Shown here piece after piece: positions 6,547 to 61,454 of a DNA stretch of 64,000 nucleotides; position 1 is the stretch's first letter; each line of letters starts with the position of its first letter. The stretch is from the NCBI GenBank assembly GCA_030390025.1, contig CM059445.1, positions 55,924,001 through 55,988,000 of the forward strand. The letters are read 5' to 3'. This DNA is from Squalus acanthias. Its lineage: Eukaryota. A program made the translations under genes and the position numbers. The notes under the pieces were generated by a model. The model was not told the DNA's origin. It was given only the letters and a program-made list of their open reading frames with translations, and made no database searches.

Positions 6547-7432
6547 GTGGGCAACACTGAGCACACAGTGTGTACATCTGGCGTGCAATTTGTTCTTACA
6601 ATGTTGGTTGTTTTATTTTTAAAAAGGTTTCTATTCCTTGACCATCAAAGCTGTTTACTCCTTCAGCCAAGGCTGCCAATAAAGCTTCTCCATGATGCTG
6701 CTTTTACGACAGCTAATGAAGGGCTTATTTGTTGAATTCAGTTGTTGTGATATGGAATGCGCTGCCTGAAAGGGCGGTGGAAGCAGATTCAAGAGTAACT
6801 TTCAAAAGGGAATTGGGTAAACACTTGAAAAGGAAAAAAGATGCAGGGCTCTGGGGAAAGAGCAGTGGAAATTGGGACTAATTGGATAGCTCTACCAAAG
6901 AGGCACAGCAGGATGGGCTGAATAGCCGCCTTCTGTGCTGTACCATTCTATGAGATACACATTTCTTTAACAATGGAGGACAAGCTGATAAAGCTGTATT
7001 TTTTTTTAACACAGCATACGGGATCTTAAATTTTATAAATAGGGCCATAGAGTACAAACGCAGTTAGGCCGATCGTCAGGATTTACGGGTCGCTGTGGCT
7101 ACCAACTCCATTTTGAGGCCATTACCGCCCCCGTCAGTGCCGATTTTCACCAGGTTAAAATCGACCCCCAATGATTCCAAATACCAAGGTGAAGGACCAA
7201 GGCCAATTATGCAGGACAGCGCCAAGGCTGTAATGAGATGGATCGGGAAATAGTGATTAGGGTGACCCGCCCCCCCCAAACTTGAGTTTAAAACCTTAAA
7301 GATTGAAAGGAGGAAAAAAAAACCTGAGGGAGGGAAGGAGTTCCACAGTTTTCAGGTCCTGGGAAAGAATGAGGTCAAATAAGATACATGTCATGGGACT
7401 TGATCTCAACACGGTGAAGATGCAAAGCTACA

Positions 7433-7960
7433 AATAAAAACAGGAAATGCTGGAGATGCTCAGCAGGTCAGGCAGCATCTGTGGAGAGAGAAACAGAGTT
7501 AACGTTTCAGGTCGATGACCCTTCGTCAGAACTGGAAAAAGCTGGAGATGGAACAGGTTTTTAAGCAAGTGCAGGGGCAGGGAAAGGGGGGAGGGGAGGA
7601 AAGAACAAAAGGGAAGGTCTGTGATAGGATGGAAGGCAGGAGAGATTAAGAGACAAAAGGGGTGATGGTGCGAGGCAAAAGGAGATGTTAATGGTACAAG
7701 TTAAGAAACAAAAGCTGGCTCTAGATGAAGTGTAAATGGCAATGGTTGAATGATCGATAGGGGCAGAGGTTATGGTCTGAAATTGTTGAACTCGATGTTG
7801 AGTCCAGAAGGCTGTAAAGTGCCCAATTGAAAGATGAGGTGCTGTTCCTCGAGCTTACGTTGAGCTTCATTGGAACAGTGTAAGAGGCCGAGGATGGTGA
7901 GGTCAGAGTGGGAGTGCAGCGGAGAATTAAAGTGACAGGTGACCAGAAGCTCGGGGTCAC
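7433..7960 (-). mobile_element. Penelope-like element 3' fragment (family B)
   Basis: GIY-YIG endonuclease C-terminal remnant plus pyrimidine-rich 3' UTR; TSD CAAAGCTACA (7423-7432 / 7961-7970). Confidence 0.8.
7497..7533 (-). ncRNA. Minimal hammerhead ribozyme motif (family B)
   Basis: minus strand reads agtt-CUGACGA-ag-gguc auc gacc-u-GAAA-CG-UU-aacu. Confidence 0.7.
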
Positions 7961-8179
7961 CAAAGCTACATTTGTTGACTGGAATTTCTTTTCCCTTGTC
8001 CGCACCAGTTCATATCAACGCACAAAAATCTGAGTTAAACCTGACTAAGATTATCATATTAGGCTTGTACCTGAGTCGGAATAAAAGTTATCCTTTGATT
8101 CTCACCCATACAATCGTTACTCCCAAGAAAGCCATAATCCTGAATACACTGCTGATCGGCCGCGCTCTTTTTCTCATAG

Positions 8180-9709: not shown

Positions 9710-10097
9710 CAGACAATTTCAGACCATAACCTCTGCCCCTATCTTTTCTTTTTCTCTCTCTCACATGGCAGCTGTCGATTATTCTGCCATTGCCATTTAC
9801 ACTTCATCTCGAGTCATCTTTTGTTCTTAACTTGTCCCATTACCATCTCCTTTTGCCTTGCACCATCCTCCCTTTTGTTTCTTAATCTCTCCTGCCTTCC
9901 ACCCTATCACAGACCTCCCTTTTGTTCTTTCCTCCCCTCCCCCCTTTCCCTGCCCCTACACTTGCTTAAAAACCTGTTCCATCTCCAACTTTTTCCAGTT
10001 CTGACGAAGGGTCCTTGACCTAAAACGTTCACTATGTTTCTCTCTCCACAGATGCTGCCTGACCTGCTGAGTACTTCCAGCATTTTCTGCTTTTATT
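9710..10097 (+). mobile_element. Penelope-like 3' fragment (family B), ribozyme core decayed
   Basis: same tail as 19983-20393; GAAA changed to AAAA; flanked by AACTTAAAT repeats. Confidence 0.75.
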
Positions 10098-10934: not shown

Positions 10935-11140
10935 AAATGTGAGAAGTCGCACAACACCAGGTTATAGTCCAACAGCTTTATTTGAAATCACAAGCTTTCG
11001 GAGCGCTGCTCCTTCGTCAGGTCACCTGACGAAGGAGCAGCGCTCCGAAAGCTTGTGATTTCAAATAAAGTTGTTGGACTATAACCTGGTGTTGTGCGAC
11101 TTCTCACATTTGTCCACCCCAGTCCAACACCGGCATCTCC
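10935..11140. mobile_element. Palindromic Penelope-like pseudo-LTR insertion (family A), copy 1
   Basis: 88-bp inverted arms 10935-11022 / 11024-11111; direct repeat TCTCCTCCTTTAA at both ends; interrupts an L2-type tail. Confidence 0.8.
11022..11058 (+). ncRNA. Minimal hammerhead ribozyme motif (family A)
   Basis: ucac-CUGACGA-a-ggagc agc gcucc-GAAA-GC-UU-guga. Confidence 0.75.
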
Positions 11141-17934: not shown

Positions 17935-17971
17935 TCACAAGCTTTCGGAGCGCTGCTCCTTCGTCAGGTGA
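17935..17971 (-). ncRNA. Minimal hammerhead ribozyme motif (family A), opposite strand
   Basis: exact reverse complement of 17974-18010. Confidence 0.75.
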
Positions 17972-17973
17972 CA

Positions 17974-18010
17974 TCACCTGACGAAGGAGCAGCGCTCCGA
18001 AAGCTTGTGA
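17974..18010 (+). ncRNA. Minimal hammerhead ribozyme motif (family A)
   Basis: complete CUGACGA / GAAA / CUU core with stems I and II. Confidence 0.75.
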
Positions 18011-19901: not shown

Positions 19902-19982
19902 GTATTGCTGTACAGTTTTGTAGCGACATAATTAAATTCGACACAGACAAAACCGGGATTGAACAGTAAAGGCAGCCACTTT

Positions 19983-20393
19983 CCAGCCTTCTGGACTCAA
20001 CATCGAGTTCAACAATTTCAGACCATAACCTCGACCCCTATGTTTTCATTTTTCTCTCACAGGGCAGCTGTTGATGATTCTGCCAGTGCCATTTACACCT
20101 CATCTAGAGTCATCTTTTGTTTCTTAACTTGTCCCATTACCATCTCCTTTTGCCTCGCACCATCATCCCTTTTGTCTTTTAATCTCTCCTGCCTTCCATC
20201 CTATCACAGACCTTCCCTTTGTTCTTTCCTCCCCCTCCCCCCTTTCCCTGCCCCCGCACTTGCTTAAAAATCTGTTACTTCTCCAACTTTTTCCAGTTCT
20301 GACGAAGGGTCATCGACCTGAAACGTTAACTCTGTTTCTCTCTCCACGATGCTGCCTGACCTGCTGAGTGTTTCCAGCATGTTCTGTTGTTGT
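19983..20393 (+). mobile_element. Penelope-like element 3' fragment (family B)
   Basis: QPSGLNIEFNNFR ORF end; 16-bp TSD TAAAGG(C/T)AGCCACTTT. Confidence 0.82.
20295..20331 (+). ncRNA. Minimal hammerhead ribozyme motif (family B)
   Basis: agtt-CTGACGA-ag-ggtc atc gacc-t-GAAA-CG-TT-aact. Confidence 0.7.
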
Positions 20394-20476
20394 TAAAGGT
20401 AGCCACTTTATTGATTTATACATTCTTCTCAGGCAGTCAAATCTGAAATCAAATGCCTATTGTGCTCTAATCCCAG

Positions 20477-20674
20477 GCGTTGAAGACCTTGTTCCAGGAC
20501 ATGTTCTTCACCAGACTCCGGATTCCTCCTGCCTTGCATGCACATGAGCTGAGGGCTTCCACATGGGACAACCTATTCCGAAAAGAAATCTACCCGGAAA
20601 TCTATACAGACGCAATTTCTGATTTACTAAATGTCAAGCTGAAGGACCCAGAAATCTTGGCATTTGTTGCGGAG
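20477..20674 (+). CDS. Uncharacterised gene A, coding exon
   Basis: ctaatcccAG acceptor, gag|GTaatg donor; ALKTLFQDMFFTRLRIPPALHAHELRASTWDNLFRKEIYPE...; phase 0 to 0. Confidence 0.8.
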
Positions 20675-22391: not shown

Positions 22392-22555
22392 GTACACCGA
22401 CACTTAGGATGTATCCAGCTTTAAAGCAATAGGACCTATCAAATGACTGCATAAAGTGTCCAATGATTAATATTAACCTGTAACTATAATACTCAGCATT
22501 TCTTTATTCAGGGTATATTCTTTAAGTAAATCATTTGTTACAATGTAAACATACT

Positions 22556-23335
22556 ATACCCCTATATATCACCATATTGTGGTGTACCCCTGTATCACAG
22601 TGTATCGTGGTGTACCCCTGTATGACAGTGTATCGTGGTGTACCCCTGTATGACAGTGTATCGTGGTATACCCCTGTATCACAGTGCATCGTGGTATACC
22701 CCTGTATCACAGTGTATTGTGGTATACCCCTGTATCACAGTGTATTGTGGTATACCCCTGTATCACAGTGCATCGTGGTATACCCCTGTATGACAGTGTA
22801 TCGTGGTATACCCCTGTATCACAGTGTATTGTGGTATACCCCTGTATCACAGTGTATCGTGGTATACCCCTGTATGACAGTGTATCGTGGTATACCCCTG
22901 TATCACAGTGTATTGTGGTATACCCCTGTATCACAGTGTATCGTGGTGTACCCCTGTATCACAGTGTATCGTGGTGTACCCCTGTATCACAGTGTATCGT
23001 GGTGTACCCCTGTATCACAGTGTATCGTGGTGTACCCCTGTATCACAGTGTATCGTGGTGTACCCCTGTATCACAGTGTATCGTGGTGTACCCCTACAGT
23101 GTATCGTGGTGTACCCCTATATATCACCATATTGTGGTGTACCCCTGTATCACAGTGTATCGTGGTGTACCCCTGTATCACAGTGTATCGTGGTGTACCC
23201 CTGTATCACAGTGTATCGTGGTGTACCCCTGTATCACAGTGTATCGTGGTGTACCCCTGTATCACAGTGTATCGTGATGTACCCCTGTATCACAGTGTAT
23301 CGTGGTATACCCCTGTATCACAGTGTATTCTGGTA
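22556..23335. repeat. 28-bp minisatellite
   Basis: about 27 tandem units of TGGTGTACCCCTGTATCACAGTGTATCG with variants. Confidence 0.95.
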
Positions 23336-23995
23336 CTTAATAAGCCATTGAGGGAGCCTGAAATGAATCTTTAAAAGACCTGAAGACATTAAAAGCTCCT
23401 TTTGCCCATTCCCACTGGGATACCACTTGCTACAGTAGATGTTCACAGTCCATGGCTATGATAAATGCTATCTTATTGGAATGACACCATATGGCATCTT
23501 TAGCAACAAAAGAGTTGAAGGGTAATGTATTCCTGTCTCTCAATGTGCCTTTTTCGCCCTCTCTGACAGTTATAATTCCGGAGATCCAAATGGGGTTACA
23601 AAATGAACAATCACAGCCCTGAAATTACCTTGTGGAAAACTAGCTTAACAGGGGTAATGTTCACCTTGACGCCTGGGGATAAAACTGGCATTGCGATCGG
23701 CTGCCTATTATAGAAAACGGCAATTTAACACGTGGACAATAAGCTGAAATTCCACACGTGTTTGTCAGAAATTCCGTCCCTGTTATTTTATTGGAGGTGT
23801 TTACTGGTTTATAAAAAATGGGTTACGTTTCCACTAATGTAAGGGATAAAGCAACTTCAGACAGACACAGTAAGAATTTGTATGTTGGTATCCTGTGACA
23901 GAATTATAAGGCTCATGAGACGATTAGCTTCATGGATGCGTGCTAAAAATGAAATCCATTGCAGCGTAAAGTTAACTTCTTATCTGTTCACGCAG

Positions 23996-39449: not shown

Positions 39450-39713
39450 GTACGATAACTTTTTAAATTTCTGCTGTTTCTACCTCAGGCAGTCAACGCC
39501 AGGTACAGGTGCACTGATCCATGCAGGTATCAGCTTACCTGGAGTCCGCTGCACTGAGGTTTGCATTGTAATTTTCTTTTTCCTGTGCATTACTTAGAGT
39601 AGAGAGAGGACACATTCTATCATTGAAATATACAGCAAACAGACACCGTTCCAAAGGGAACTTGAAGGAGCAGGAGGGGGGGGGGGGGGAAACATTTGCA
39701 AACAAAATGTGCG

Positions 39714-39876
39714 GAGAGAGAAACCGAGTTAACGTTTCAGATCGATGACCTTTCGTCAGAAGTTCTGAAACGTTAACTCCGTTTCTCTCTCCACAGACGC
39801 TGCCTGACCTGCTGAGTATTTCCAGCATTTTCTGTTTATATTTCAGATTTCCAGCATCCGCAGCACTTTGCTTTCG
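39714..39876. mobile_element. Penelope-like family B end with inverted 5' piece
   Basis: head-to-head partial copies; 18-bp TSD TTGCAAACAAAATGTGCG. Confidence 0.78.
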
Positions 39877-40433
39877 TTGCAAACAAAATGTGCGAGCTGG
39901 TGACCAACAGAGCAATAGGATGGGGGTTGATTCTTGCAGTTCCTTATACATCGAATTGCTGGCACCAAATTACATTGAATTTACAGCACAGAAACAGGCC
40001 ATTCGGCCCAATTGGTCTGTGCCGGTGTTTACACTCCACACGAGCCTCCTCCAACCCTATTTCATCTCACCCTATCAGCCTAACCTTCTATTCCTTTCTC
40101 CCTCGTGCACTTCTCTAGCTTCACCTTAAAGGCATCTATGCTACTTGCCTCAACTACTCCATGTGGTAGCAAGTTCCTCATTCTCACCACTCGCTGGCTA
40201 AAGAGAAGTTTCTCCTGAATTCATTCTTGGATTTATTAGTGACTATCTTATATTTATGGCTCCTTGTTCTGGACTCCCCACAAATCTGACAGTGAAACAA
40301 TTCACTCGTTCTCACATATCGGTATCTTTTATTACATGAAGCTAGCAAAGGGGGGGGGGGAATCTACTGTGGCCAACACCTAAAATTCCATTAGAATGTA
40401 TATCTCTTGTGCAACAAGGAATGCATTATGTAG

Positions 40434-40632
40434 CCATGATGTGGAGATGCCGGTGTTGGACTGGGGTGGACAAATGTGAGAAGTCGCACAACACCAGGTT
40501 ATAGTCCAACAGCTTTATTTGAAATCACAAGCTTTCGGAGTCACCTGACGAAGGAGCAGCGCTCCGAAAGCTTGTGATTTCAAAAAAAGCTGTTGGACTA
40601 TAACCTGGTGTTGTGCGACTTCTCACTTTTGT
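40434..40632. mobile_element. Palindromic Penelope-like pseudo-LTR insertion (family A), copy 3
   Basis: inverted arms joined at 40540/40541; TSD ATTATGTAG. Confidence 0.8.
40541..40577 (+). ncRNA. Minimal hammerhead ribozyme motif (family A), sense in DPAGT1 intron
   Basis: tcacCTGACGAaggagcagcgctccGAAAGCTTgtga intact. Confidence 0.72.
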
Positions 40633-40979
40633 ATTATGTAGAGCAGTGGTTTTCAAGCTTTTTTGTGTGAGGATATTCTTGCAAGTATTGTTGCAATCCT
40701 GGGGAGCCCCCAATTTAACTTCATAAAAAGTGTCGGCTTCCCAAAGGACAGCCATGCTATCTTTGCATAAAACATCCTTTATCAGCATTATGTTACTATA
40801 TTTTACATCAAAGGAAACTTGATTATGAGGTCACTGCATGCACACAGCGGCAGAAAGTAGGCGTAGGCAGTCGAATTCCTTACTCCACTGTGGTTTATTC
40901 TTTCTGCTGAAAGTTTGGGGCTGTGCCACAGTTTGTTGGGGAAAAGCCATTTTGACCTGTACTCTTTCATGTGCTGCAG

Positions 40980-41168
40980 GTATCCGTCTAGCGCCTTTGT
41001 GGGCGACACATTCTGTTACTTTGCGGGAATGACTTTCGCCGTGGTCGGGATCCTTGGCCACTTCAGTAAGACCATGATGCTGTTCTTCATCCCTCAGACG
41101 CTGAACTTCCTTTACTCGGTGCCTCAGCTCTTCCATATCGTTCCGTGCCCACGCCACCGAATACCGAG
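40980..41168 (+). CDS. DPAGT1: DPAGT1 coding exon 6
   Basis: [31 protein letters not shown]...PCPRHRIPR (FVGD and PRHR motifs). Confidence 0.97.
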
Positions 41169-41584
41169 GTACGACCAATCTACCACGTGCTTTTTTAATC
41201 GGGGCGAGACTCTCAGCTTCCAGGCCAATGTGCTATCTCTGATGGAGGGAGCAAATGGGCAACCTGCTCCCAGACCTTGTCAGTCAGCTGCTAAAAGGAA
41301 AGTAAATTGAGCCCAGTGGGGCGATACTTTATGAACGAGAACTAAACATGTGCAAGAGCATTGTCAGTGTCTGATGTTAATCTTAAAATATTGAAACCTG
41401 GTGGGGAGGGATGTTGAAGGGCTTCCTGTCCATTTAACCCTGAAACTGTCTTGGATGCTGTGTATGAAAATGTCTACAAGTAGTCCTTATAGCGCACATT
41501 TAGTATAAGTAATTTCTGCCAGAAAACCGTGCATAAGTAGTAATCGTGTTTGTTTTTTTTTTCCTTCTCTGTTTCCACACCCAG

Positions 41585-46724: not shown

Positions 46725-46910
46725 ACAAAAATACTGCAGATGCTGGAAATCTGAAATAACAACAGAAAATGAAGGATTCTCTCGGCATCTGTGGAGAGAG
46801 AAACAGAGTTAACATTTCAGGTCGGTGATTGACGTGAACCGTTAACTCTCTCTCTCTCGCTACAGATGCTGCCTGACCTGCTGAGCATTAACAGCATTTT
46901 CTGTTTTTAT
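46725..46910. mobile_element. Decayed inverted Penelope-like family B ends
   Basis: catctgtggagagagaaacagagttaac followed by its reverse complement. Confidence 0.65.
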
Positions 46911-47715
46911 TGCTGTCATTTAAGTTGATTTTTTTTTTTTAAGAGAGTGCTGTAGATGGAGACTGGGAGTGCATACAAGAGCAAACCACAGTGCATGAAA
47001 CCCTAAGAAATTCAGCTGTGAAATACTACTGGCATGCTTCAAAAGATGTAATTTATTTCTAACACTTTGGAATTCAAATCAAGACTCAAGCAACTGATTG
47101 ACACGATGTAATATTTTTGTGCATTTTCAATCTTGGTAGCATTTTACTTTCCTCAGTTACACACCAATAACTTAACTTGCCAGCATTTATTTAATCTAAT
47201 ATTGGATGAGAAGCAGAAATCCCGTTGTCTGGATATTTTGAGTCGAAGAGGGAGACTCCGCTGCGAAGATGAGCTGTTGCAGGCTATGCATGTGGTCACT
47301 GAAATGAATCTATTGTTCAGAAGTCCTTAGTGTGAAGAGTTCACACTTTGTTAAATTGCTGTTGCCCTGGTGCGACCTCGATTCTATGCTTGGTAACTGG
47401 AAAGATTAATGAATGAATAATTGAATAAAGTGAAGTGCAAGAGCATATTGCTTTTTCATAAAAGAAAATACATTGTGTATATATATGTACAACTGAGACT
47501 GAGAGAGACTCTGGAATTTGACTTGATAATATAAATGAAAACATGGGTTTGAGAATTGTGACCTCCGCATCTAAATAAAATCTTTAAAGAATACAGCTTA
47601 AGTACACTGGCTATATATCACAAGCATGCATAGCAAATTCAAAATGGGACCTTTTTATAGTGCTATATGCAGTGAGACACTAATGAATATTAAGTGTGCT
47701 TTGTCCTGGTTCAAA

Positions 47716-51359: not shown

Positions 51360-51558
51360 ACGGACCCAGCCGGACGCGGCACTGGCCGGAAGCGATGGTG
51401 CGCCAATCAGAGCCAAGGAACGGTCCTTGTCACTTGTTGATTGGACAGTTTGTCCGGGCCGCCTCCTTCCGATTGGATAAAGGCGGTGTCAATCACACCA
51501 ATCAGCTTCACACCGCCCAGCGAAGGTGATTTTAAGGACTCTGGAAGCAGCGACTCGG
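51360..51558 (+). promoter_or_regulatory. HINFP: Probable HINFP promoter and non-coding first exon
   Basis: CpG-rich patch with ETS-type CCGGAAG (51386) and four CCAAT/ATTGG boxes (51403, 51440, 51472, 51498); candidate donor tcg|GTaatt; the HINFP ATG exon downstream begins with an acceptor. Confidence 0.6.
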
Positions 51559-51639
51559 TAATTTTTATGTGTAGAAATAATAACAATAATTTTAACATTT
51601 ATGTATATATAAAAATAATTTCCGTACCGTGGGGGCAGA

Positions 51640-52830
51640 GGGGGGAGTGGGGGCTGAGGCAAGGGGAGAGGGGGCAGAGTTGGGGCGAGGGGGATGAGGG
51701 GGATGAGGGCAAGGGGAGAGGGGGATGAGGGCAAGGGGAGAGGGGGGATGAGGGCAAGGGGAGAGGGGGGATGAGGGCAAGGGGAGAGGGGGGATGAGGG
51801 CAAGGGGAGAGGGGGATGAGGGCAAGGGGAGAGGGGGATGAGGGGAGAGGGGGATGAGGGGAGAGGGGGATGAGGGCAAGGGGAGAGGGGGATGAGGGGA
51901 GAGGGGGATGAGGGCAAGGGGAGAGGGGGATGAGGGGAGAGGGGGATGAGGGCGAGGGGAGAGGGGGATGAGGGCGAGGGGAGAGGGGGATGAGGGCGAG
52001 GGGAGAGGGGGGGATGAGGGAGAGGGGGGATGAGGGGGATGAGGGCGAGGGGGGATGAGGGCGAGGGGAGAGGGGGGATGAGGGCGAGGGGAGAGGGGGG
52101 ATGAGGGCAAGGGGAGAGGGGGATGAGGGCAAGGGGAGAGGGGGATGAGGGCAAGGGGAGAGGGGGATGAGGGCAAGGGGAGAGGGGGATGAGGGCGAGG
52201 GGAGAGGGGGATGAGGGCGAGGGGAGAGGGGGATGAGGGCGAGGGGAGAGGGGGATGAGGGCGAGGGGAGAGGGGGATGAGGGCGAGGGGAGAGGGGGGA
52301 TGAGGGCGAGGGGAGAGGGGGGGATGAGGGCGAGGGGGGATGAGGGCGAGGGGAGAGGGGGATGAGGGCAAGGGGAGAGGGGGGATGAGGGCGAGGGGAG
52401 AGGGGGGATGAGGGCGAGGGGGGATGAGGGCGAGGGGAGGGGGGGATGAGGGCGAGGGGAGAGGGGGATGAGGGCAAGGGGAGAGGGGGATGAGGGCAAG
52501 GGGAGAGGGGGGAGAGGGGGATGAGGGCAAGGGGAGAGGGGGATGAGGGCAAGGGGAGAGGGGGATGAGGGCAAGGGGAGAGGGGGATGAGGGCAGGGGG
52601 AGAGGGGGATGAGGGCAGGGGGAGAGGGGGATGAGGGCAAGGGAGAGGGGGATGAGGGGAGGGGGAGGGGAGGGGGAGGGGGATGAGGGCAAGGGGAGAG
52701 GGGGATGAGGGCGAGGGGGATGAGGGCAAGGGGAGAGGGGGATGAGGGCAAGGGGAGAGGGGGATGAGGGCAAGGGGAGAGGGGGATGAGGGCAAGGGGA
52801 GAGGGGGATGAGGGCAAGGGATGAGGGGGA
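51640..52830. repeat. G-rich polypurine minisatellite (~22-bp unit GGGGGATGAGGGCAAGGGGAGA)
   Basis: direct inspection; about 50 variable units. Confidence 0.95.
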
Positions 52831-53052
52831 GAGGTGGGGGCGGAGTGGAGTTGGGGCGGGGGGAGGTGGGGGCTGGGCAGAAGTGGGGAGTGGGCTGAGA
52901 GGGCGAGTGGGGGCTGGGGGTAGAGGGGGAGGGGGAGTGGAGCTGAGAGGAAAGGGGGGAGGGGGCAGAGGGTGTGGGGGATGAAGGGGGCAAAGAGGGA
53001 GCGGGGGCTGAGGCCGGGCGAGTGGGGCTGTTGGTGGGGCCGGGTGGAGAGG

Positions 53053-53625
53053 CTCACTCTTATTGCGCTGGTGGATGGCAATTACCATCACCAGTTTAGA
53101 GGGCACAACCAATAAAAACTGTGACTTAAACCAAAAATTAAAAGAAAACTTACCAAATTAAATCAGAGTCCTATTTTCACGGGGGTGATTAAGCACTCCA
53201 GTCCCGTCGGTCGCGGAACGCATCAAGCGTGCCAGTGAACACCGCGTGCTCACTGTTATTGCACTGGTGCATGGCAAATAGCCATCACCAGTTTAGAGTT
53301 AAGCATATGCCCCCTCCTCAGGCTCACAACCAAAAAGGACTGTAACTTAACCAAAATTAAAAGGTAGCTTAACAAATTAAATTAGAATTCTATTCCCGGG
53401 GTAATGATGCACTCCAGTCCCTCCGGCCCCCCCCCCCCCCCAAAACCTGGCACCAGGTGACCAAAGATCAGGAGCGTGGGACTGAAGTGCAGCCAAAAAT
53501 TGAGGAGCAGCCCCTTCAATTAGTGGAAGAGGGGTTGTAACCTTTCACACTCTGTGTATACGTGGAACACGGCTTCCTCCAGGCCGCAGAGAATGCAGGT
53601 GGCCTGGGACTCTGCGAACCGACTT
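53053..53625 (-). mobile_element. Tx1/L1-like LINE 3' end with duplicated tail
   Basis: CILCGLEEAVFHVYTECERLQPLF (CCHC zinc-finger-like end of ORF2); tail present twice (about 53053 and 53249). Confidence 0.6.
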
Positions 53626-60190: not shown

Positions 60191-60749
60191 GACCCCCCCA
60201 GCCAGGGGATTGACCTTTCAATGGAACCGGTTGTGACGAAAGGTCACTGACCTGAAACGTTAACTCTGTTTCTCTCTCCACAGATGCTGCCTGACCTGCT
60301 GAGCATTTTCTGTTTCGATGCATTTTCATTGTTATGCGTATATAGTTAATGCCGCTGAGCTAAAGAGGAATTTTATTTTCAATTGCCTAAATGGTGCAAA
60401 GGGAGATCTGTGTAATGTGAGCATGGTCTCCGCTGGCCCATGTTACAATGTTTAACACTTTAAAACTGTTGGGTAGGCAGTTTGAGAGCAAATATTTTGT
60501 GCTTGCCCCTCACCCATTTAACACCGGGGACAATAAGATGGCGAACGTATTGTAAATTCTTGGCGTCACTGAAGCAGAAGTTCATGTTGTTTGCCGATTT
60601 ATTTATTTTTTCCTCCTACACTGACCCAAATCAAATGAACCAGCAGTTCAAAATGGCAAGATAGAGCGAATGAATCACATAAGTGTACCGACATCTCCTG
60701 TTATAAAACTGAGGGGTACATGGGGCAATTTAGTAGAAAGTACTCCAAC

Positions 60750-60905: not shown

Positions 60906-60964
60906 ACTCCGACCTACTCCTCCCTTTTAGAATATAAGCAAGTAGCAAATGTAGATAACATTGA

Positions 60965-61454
60965 AATAACAACAGAAAATGCTGGAAACACTCAGCAGGT
61001 CAGGCAGCATCCGTGGAGAGAGAAACAGAGTTAATATTTCAGGTCTGGGACCCTTCGTCAGAACTGGAAAAGGCCGGAGATATAACAGGTTTTAAGCAGG
61101 TGCAGAGGCGGGGAGGATGTGAAGGAACAGTCTGTGCTAGGGTAGGAGGCAGGAAAGATAAAATGTTGCAAATGGGGATGGCAAAATCATACAGCCTGAA
61201 GAATGGGGGCAGGGCTTATAGTCTGAAATTGTTGAACTCAATGTTGAGTCCAGAAGGCTGTAAAGTGCCTAATCGAAAGAGGAGGTGCTGTTCCTCGAGC
61301 TTACGTTGAGCTTCATTGGAACAGTGTAAGAGGCTGAGGACGGAGAGGTCAGAGTGGGAGTGAAGCGGAGAATTAAAGTGACAGGCGACCAGAAGCTCGG
61401 GGTCACCCTTACGTACTGAACGGAGGTGTTCCGCAAAGCGGTTGCCCAATCTGC
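60965..61454 (-). mobile_element. Penelope-like element 3' fragment with GIY-YIG endonuclease remnant (family B)
   Basis: RRLGNRFAEHLRSV...VACHFNS...RKLEEQHLLFRLGTLQPSGLNIEFNNFR; 14-bp TSD GTAGATAACATTGA; hammerhead motif at 61029-61065. Confidence 0.88.

Follow-up and report, generated by a model that had tools for sequence, protein, structure and literature searches.

The hammerhead motif and its copies in the window

The window, that is, the whole 64-kb stretch of DNA analysed, contains a 37-nt motif, AGTTCTGACGAAGGGTCATCGACCTGAAACGTTAACT, at positions 20295-20331 of the forward strand, and an identical copy at 7497-7533 of the reverse strand, both of them as claimed by a previous sequence-only reading. 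The features of this locus and of the related ones are compiled in Table 1. The motif is almost certainly a minimal type I hammerhead located in the pLTR of a Neptune-type Penelope-like element, referred to here as family B. Its cut site and residue numbers were placed by the standard hammerhead scheme, as set out in PMC4209133. The stem II that had been proposed for the motif is better parsed with an extra unpaired A, followed by five pairs that open with G10.1.U11.1, and according to this parse family B differs at position 11.1 from the second hammerhead family of the window, family A.

Table 1. Features of the family B locus at 20295, of the other family B copies and of the comparison family in the window.
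Feature	Position	Strand	Remarks
Left target-site duplication	19967..19982	+	16 bp, one mismatch relative to the right copy
5'-truncated Penelope-like insertion	19983..20393	+	411 nt: ORF end, 3' UTR, hammerhead, short-form tail
End of the RT/GIY-YIG ORF	19984..20028	+	last 14 codons and stop, QPSGLNIEFNNFRP*
TATA-like box TTAAAAA	20264..20270	+	31 nt upstream of where stem I begins; putative promoter element
Initiator-like CCAGTTC	20293..20299	+	predicted start at A20295, where stem I begins
Minimal type I hammerhead motif, family B	20295..20331	+	window sequence; standard hammerhead numbering
Stem I	20295-20298 with 20328-20331	+
Core CUGACGA	20299-20305	+
Extra unpaired A	20306	+	after A9
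Stem II	20307-20311 with 20315-20319	+	loop 20312-20314
GAAA and palindrome AACGUU	20320-20323; 20322-20327	+
Predicted cut	20327/20328	+	after GUU; standard hammerhead scheme
Tail	20332..20393	+	in full-length copies, runs on into the 5' region of the element
Right target-site duplication	20394..20409	+
Family B copy	7432..7961	-	identical hammerhead 7497-7533, longer endonuclease remnant, 10-bp target duplication
Family B copy	9713..10097	+	hammerhead 9997-10033 with G12 to A, 12-bp target duplication (one mismatch)
Head-to-head inverted pair of family B ends	39712..39877	.	junction within the hammerhead, 18-bp target duplication
Inverted pair of family B ends	46728..46911	.	partial hammerheads; target duplication looked for, none found
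Family B stub	60227..60315	+	from the 5' edge of the hammerhead, C3 to G; target duplication looked for, none found
Family B copy	60962..61440	-	endonuclease remnant, hammerhead 61029-61065 with broken palindrome, 14-bp target duplication
Family A hammerheads (comparison family)	10988..11058; further 17935-18010, 40541-40577	.	head-to-head

The four variants previously listed at 9997, 39727, 60232 and 61029 all exist, each of them damaged in the core, in stem I or in the palindrome. The variant given at 60232 truly occupies 60229-60265, where C3 is changed to G and the copy is truncated at the edge of the motif, and in the one at 39727 an inversion junction has replaced the 5' strand of stem I. 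One locus, the inverted pair with partial hammerheads at 46728-46911, was absent from that list. Of the 7 window insertions tested, 5 are flanked by target duplications of 10-18 bp. The family A pairs at 10988-11058, 17935-18010 and 40472-40630 are arranged head-to-head and joined at or inside the hammerhead, and the last ~35 nt of the tail are absent from one of their arms.

Within the window, a loose core pattern yields 12 matches compared to a shuffle mean of 4.8, with 1 of 100 shuffles as high, which is a weak enrichment. Throughout the genome (3.7 Gb), the core pattern of family B yields 55,856 matches compared to 11 for the reversed control, which indicates that the motif is not a product of chance; a stem-only pattern, which matches both strands at each site, yields 110,394 matches, equivalent to ~55,000 sites, and family A accounts for 77,701 motifs. 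The window also holds an open frame at 40867-41310 (+), without a Pfam match at E 0.01, that we presume to resemble part of the GlcNAc-1-phosphate transferase (DPAGT1), and two long minisatellite-like tandem arrays (22500-23370 and 51500-53100) that yield low-complexity open frames.

The host element

The insertion that carries the motif keeps only 14 codons of its ORF, and 266 nt of pyrimidine-rich 3' UTR separate the stop codon from the hammerhead; the copies at 7497 and 61029 keep ~60-70 codons of the endonuclease end. The motif is thus placed downstream of the end of a GIY-YIG ORF, as had been stated. Seven long genomic copies (L031-L037), whose frames are broken but readable, show a single ORF with a reverse transcriptase (RT) that includes YIDD, a CX4CxxC linker and, at the C terminus, a GIY-YIG-type domain, and this ORF ends in the same C-terminal peptide (QPSGLNIEFNNFRP). 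The Pfam matches of these long copies to RVT_1 (E 0.00065) and GIY-YIG (E 0.006) are weak and below the curated cut-offs, and Pfam gave no match for the 79-aa endonuclease remnant of the window or for two N-terminal pieces. The pLTR context, together with the RT, linker and GIY-YIG domain upstream of the motif in the long copies, supports the reading that this minimal hammerhead is tied to a GIY-YIG Penelope element.

The linker reads CKRRRCNTC in family B and CHGNLCKTC in family A, both of which fit CX2-5CxxC, a motif that by the criteria of PMC8557442 points to Neptune or Nematis; according to a 2026 preprint, Neptune and Poseidon are the sole PLE groups found in vertebrates. These sequence features support a Neptune-type Penelope-like retroelement as the host of family B, with the clade set by the linker motif alone. 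Partial tandems, inverted 5' copies, an optional tail and target duplications are all present among family B copies. A non-LTR retrozyme, which would consist of short non-coding tandem units each with a hammerhead, does not fit the window copies, which are dispersed and carry ORF ends and target duplications.

The first ATG downstream of the motif (20349) lies 21 nt past the predicted cut and opens a 30-codon frame that stops ahead of the main ORF; in 25 of the 29 copies parsed this frame ends in TAA, and the main ORF begins nine codons later. A splice-acceptor-like stretch precedes the start of the main ORF, and the arrangement suggests a putative retained 5' UTR intron ahead of it, as in Drosophila Penelope. 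Directly before the main ATG lie, in copies L068-L097, an in-frame TAA that is conserved and a pyrimidine tract with YAG at its end.

Families A and B

Family A is likewise linked to a GIY-YIG ORF end and a CxxC linker (L024, L037 and L107). The endonucleases of the two families are ~37% identical, their ORF ends differ and their linkers are of the same kind; A and B are thus two related but distant lineages. The palindrome is AACGUU in B and AAGCUU in A, and neither family has a helix III. The sequence-only reading held that the two families share an identical core and a length of 37 nt, and that stem I, stem II and the palindrome differ between them with pairing kept. The core is indeed common to both, whereas the shared length is incidental, since loop II has many lengths in family A; most pairs do show two-sided changes, but only two lineages are being compared.

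A search for further hammerhead families with a CGU palindrome yielded 138 matches, and the 100 listed are mostly double mutants of family B, so separate families of this kind were discarded. One locus (L182:1497-1540; G000:C3:123434184) is an older, diverged relative of B whose stem II is shorter and pairs poorly and whose tail has also diverged, and a few similar matches are found on C2 and C8. A common unrelated repeat contains CTGAGGA...GAAA without stem II or a UH triplet, and represents a natural false positive for loose hammerhead patterns.

Conservation of the fold

Among 85 family B copies that were not chosen by a hammerhead pattern, the unpaired core letters C3-A6, G8, A9 and G12-A15.1 match in 82-85 of the 85, and position 10.1, opposite U, is G in 44 and A in 40. 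The frequent variants of family B fall at N7, in loop II, at 10.1-11.1 (A-U, G.U or G-C), at 11.2 (G-C to G.U), at 1.1 (U-A to U.G) and at H17 (U or C). Most copies lack the usual G10.1-C11.1 pair: U11.1 is present in 55,856 copies, as in the G.U at 20307/20319; A10.1-U11.1 with an intact stem is found in 28,879 copies genome-wide, and G10.1-C11.1 in 840, compared to 327 copies with C3 changed to U. The non-G-C combination, at which pairing is kept, marks family B as a variant hammerhead.

Each of the nine pairs of family B is formed in 108-122 of 125 copies, a set from which 30 loci picked for broken stems were excluded and in which G-C copies are over-represented by design. The extra A between 9 and 10.1 is present in 118/125 copies of B and 73/74 of A, part of the sample having been chosen with this A fixed. 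When 12 recurrent types (10 of B, 2 of A) are compared, all 108 of 108 cells are paired and 7 of the 9 pairs change on both sides, compared to at most 47% for slid controls; these types were chosen by hand, six of the seven two-sided pairs come from the A-B contrast alone, and the comparison is not tree-aware. In contigs of four other organisms, variants above 5% occur at N7, 10.1, loop II and 1.1, and also at G8 and G16.2, which lie in CpG.

That the motif could be a neutral relic of a few master elements, its apparent covariation reflecting just two ancestors, is very improbable. The relatedness of the copies, which inflates the pair counts, and the hand-picking of the recurrent types would be in keeping with such a relic; yet about 10 of the 25 nt upstream of the motif have family-level variants in the 85 copies and the core has none, and family A shows a two-sided change of its own in stem I (C-G in 55 and U-A in 12 of 74 copies), with a loop II that varies in length between stems that are fixed. 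Taken together, these patterns of variation support RNA-structure selection acting on the hammerhead fold in the Penelope pLTR. The previous claim of a selected RNA structure is therefore supported, and by a case stronger than the A-B contrast on which it was made, since it draws mainly on variants that keep the pairs, both within each family and in four other organisms.

One of these four organisms shows C3 to U at 9% and G8 to A at 10%, with C3 to U below 3% in the other three; it could hold a U3-A8 subfamily such as that reported for Schistosoma. A compensatory subfamily of this type was rejected for the present genome, in which 42 double changes compared to 327 single C3 to U changes represent approximately the rate expected from CpG decay at G8.

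Predicted folding and catalysis

According to the energy model, the hammerhead fold makes up 0.2% of the monomer ensemble of family B and 9% of that of family A; stem I is absent from the predicted fold of B in its sequence context, and the B dimer reaches -8.5 compared to -22.9 kcal/mol for the best duplex. Energy models thus disfavour the hammerhead fold of naked B RNA, either as a monomer or as a dimer. It should be noted that such models score three-way junction cores poorly. No Rfam hammerhead family matched at gathering score in the window, nor at E up to 10 within 20100-20500.

These predictions bear on the reading in which the fold is kept as a protein binding or positioning signal, or as part of the core promoter, with catalysis being vestigial in family B. 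In its favour, besides the unfavourable folding, G10.1-C11.1 has been lost in ~98% of the core-intact copies (55,856 compared to 840, from patterns that differ slightly), and the motif overlaps the predicted start, so that a promoter constraint at the DNA level is possible. However, the letters that are invariant are exactly those of the catalytic core, in two lineages with differing stems, and the stems vary with pairing kept, which is not required of a DNA promoter. At the family level, moreover, H17 is only U or C, which the NUH rule allows. We regard this reading as unlikely.

Minimal PLE hammerheads cut weakly and only as dimers (PMC4209133), and the hammerhead of an Anolis element needs protein for cutting and is dispensable for insertion in vitro, with unprocessed RNA as the main substrate and no reads ending at the cut (PMC11167929). 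No data on the activity of hammerheads with U11.1 were found in the covered parts of PMC2837043 or PMC544870.

Where the copies begin

The initiator consensus is YYANWYY, which occurs 5 times in the 370 nt between the stop codon and the end of the insertion. Across subfamilies, a TTAAA box is located at -32 to -28, with A at -27 in 86/93 and at -26 in 87/93 copies. We compared these candidate promoter elements with the 5' ends of genomic copies in three samples.

None of 30 near-full-length copies (including two pairs of duplicates or partners) begins at the predicted cut: 19 start at 7215 or earlier, the reference motif being at 7210-7246, and 11 well after the cut. Among 65 incidental copies, which include some duplicates and inverted partners, 1 begins exactly at the cut and 5 within 5 nt of it, while 9 start at -40 to -28, 12 at -27 to -6 and 5 at -100 to -41. 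The third sample consists of pattern-picked copies from 60 loci, of which the 53 kept extend to C3. In 13 of these the 5' end lies at most 8 nt upstream of C3, 6.8-fold the rate of the adjoining 92 nt (p 5e-6); with inversion junctions removed, the figure is 9 of 47 (p 2e-4). The point where these ends gather is the A of CCAGTTC. The 5' truncations that are also common inside the motif, as in the 12 copies at -27 to -6, indicate that the pile-up is not one sharp end. Family A shows a similar tendency for ends near TCACTTC, with a less fixed position of the TATA-like box. From these positions, the first base of stem I is likely where the transcript begins; the hammerhead would form the first 37 bases of the element RNA.

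Two other templates were considered. If the cut RNA served as template, 5' ends would be expected at the equivalent of 20328, where they are rarely seen, and this template was rejected. A template spliced at the CAG immediately within stem I is not supported by the truncated copies, which share no upstream exon and several of which keep the AG. Among the 15 contigs listed, of a set with 117 more, none has a splice-like joint; contigs of this kind do not reveal ends, strand or level.

Intact motifs are found at both ends of long copies, and 16 of the 30 near-full-length copies reach beyond the predicted start by 26 to over 1,200 nt on its upstream side, more than one linear RNA with a fixed start could provide, which implies that read-through, template jumps or circles must also occur. 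In L090 and L096, a long segment runs straight into a short one whose first base is that of the hammerhead, a layout that looks like a template jump from the 5' end of an RNA; both segments of L096 (G000:C3:25992935-25996241) begin at that base (7213 and 7210).

A circular template would account for part of this picture. In the cleave-ligate model proposed in PMC4209133, the hammerheads of both terminal repeats would cut, the unit RNA would be ligated into a circle, and reverse transcription around it would yield copies longer than one unit and so restore the upstream TATA-like box. Such regeneration is what an upstream promoter needs, the copies that reach beyond the predicted start agree with it, and the intact motifs are compatible with a motif rebuilt at the junction. 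A circle, however, has no 5' end and hence does not explain why 5' ends gather where stem I begins, the segments of L096 fit jumps from a linear 5' end, tandem read-through likewise yields long 5' repeats, and hammerhead mutants had no effect on insertion in vitro (PMC11167929). We consider the circular template, the main rival reading, rather doubtful.

A proposed mechanism

We favour a mechanism based on a linear, mostly uncut RNA, to which as a whole we assign a probability of about 0.5. Transcription would be directed by the TATA-like box and the initiator, producing an RNA with the first base of stem I at its 5' end. The element protein would begin reverse-transcribing this RNA from its tail and, once on the 5' repeat, would run off the RNA end, leaving stubs. 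Two transcripts may pair through the AACGUU palindrome as a dimer, which the element protein would assist and which the hammerhead would cut only rarely; the cut would remove the capped 33-nt leader and retire that RNA, a putative self-limiting role. New insertions would carry an intact motif.

The absence of starts at the cut among the 30 near-full-length copies, and the single exact start among the 65 incidental ones, are the basis for considering the template uncut, and the mechanism fits the Anolis element in its protein-dependent cutting, its hammerhead that is dispensable for insertion and its lack of reads at the cut. The unfavourable folding predicted for B, the loss of G10.1-C11.1 in most copies, the frequent truncations inside the motif, the 16 long copies that begin 26 nt or more upstream of the predicted start and the repeated occurrence of YYANWYY in the 370 nt count against it. 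More tentatively, we can envisage that the element's dimeric protein would pair two transcripts through the palindrome, that their mutual decapping would act as a built-in negative feedback, and that the stubs, tens of thousands in number, would record run-off at the uncut 5' end. If true, this would answer what Penelope hammerheads do, a role called unclear in PMC8557442.

Comparison with known systems

The motif as such is ordinary for Penelope-like elements. Minimal hammerheads have been described in metazoan PLE pLTRs, among them those of the Xena, Poseidon and Neptune elements that fishes carry, and one genome can contain several families that covary (PMC4209133); the family B hammerhead belongs to this published class of Neptune-element ribozymes. 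Our literature search, made chiefly in article texts, turned up nothing on Penelope hammerheads of sharks and nothing on transcription starting at stem I, which is weak evidence of absence; the sole match for "shark" was a simile of hammerhead shape in PMC6155905, the text portion and the one supplement of PMC4209133 covered here name no shark, and the 2026 preprint includes one cartilaginous fish.

Family B shares with the minimal hammerheads of PMC4209133 the pLTR site, a short stem I, the extra nucleotide 9/10.1, the lack of helix III, the palindromic 15.2-16.2, several families per genome, compensatory changes and mostly solitary truncated copies. It differs from them in its stem II of 5 bp and in being mostly G.U or A-U at 10.1-11.1, where G-C is highly conserved in the published set, although the published search descriptor does not include it; the motif numbers are ~56,000 (B) and ~78,000 (A), compared to ~4,000 in coelacanth and ~9,000 in Xenopus. 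With the Neptune clade (PMC8557442), B has in common the C-terminal GIY-YIG, the CX2-5CxxC linker, 5' truncation, partial tandems, inverted 5' copies and the optional tail. Having two Neptune-type lineages with many subfamilies in one genome shows which changes the fold tolerates, such as the loss of G10.1-C11.1, and the copies of A and B also show where reverse transcription stops.

The Poseidon element PAc of Anolis carolinensis (PMC11167929) resembles B in its pLTR hammerhead, in a tail that runs into the 5' region, in having two favoured 3' ends, at about +65 and +100 relative to the cut, and in the lack of ends at the cut. The PAc ORF begins inside the hammerhead, whereas in B the first ATG lies past the cut and the main ORF still later, and B has a Neptune-type linker, unlike PAc. 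A promoter in the pLTR is also known or proposed for D. virilis Penelope and Adineta Pen2a (PMC2377424, PMC3846280); in the latter a TCACT initiator-like site accompanies a putative TATA box, as it does in family A. The start of D. virilis Penelope is separated by 46 bp from a downstream intron, the end of which abuts helix I (PMC2377424), whereas the predicted start of B is the first base of helix I itself, a position that makes the decapping and circle models directly testable.
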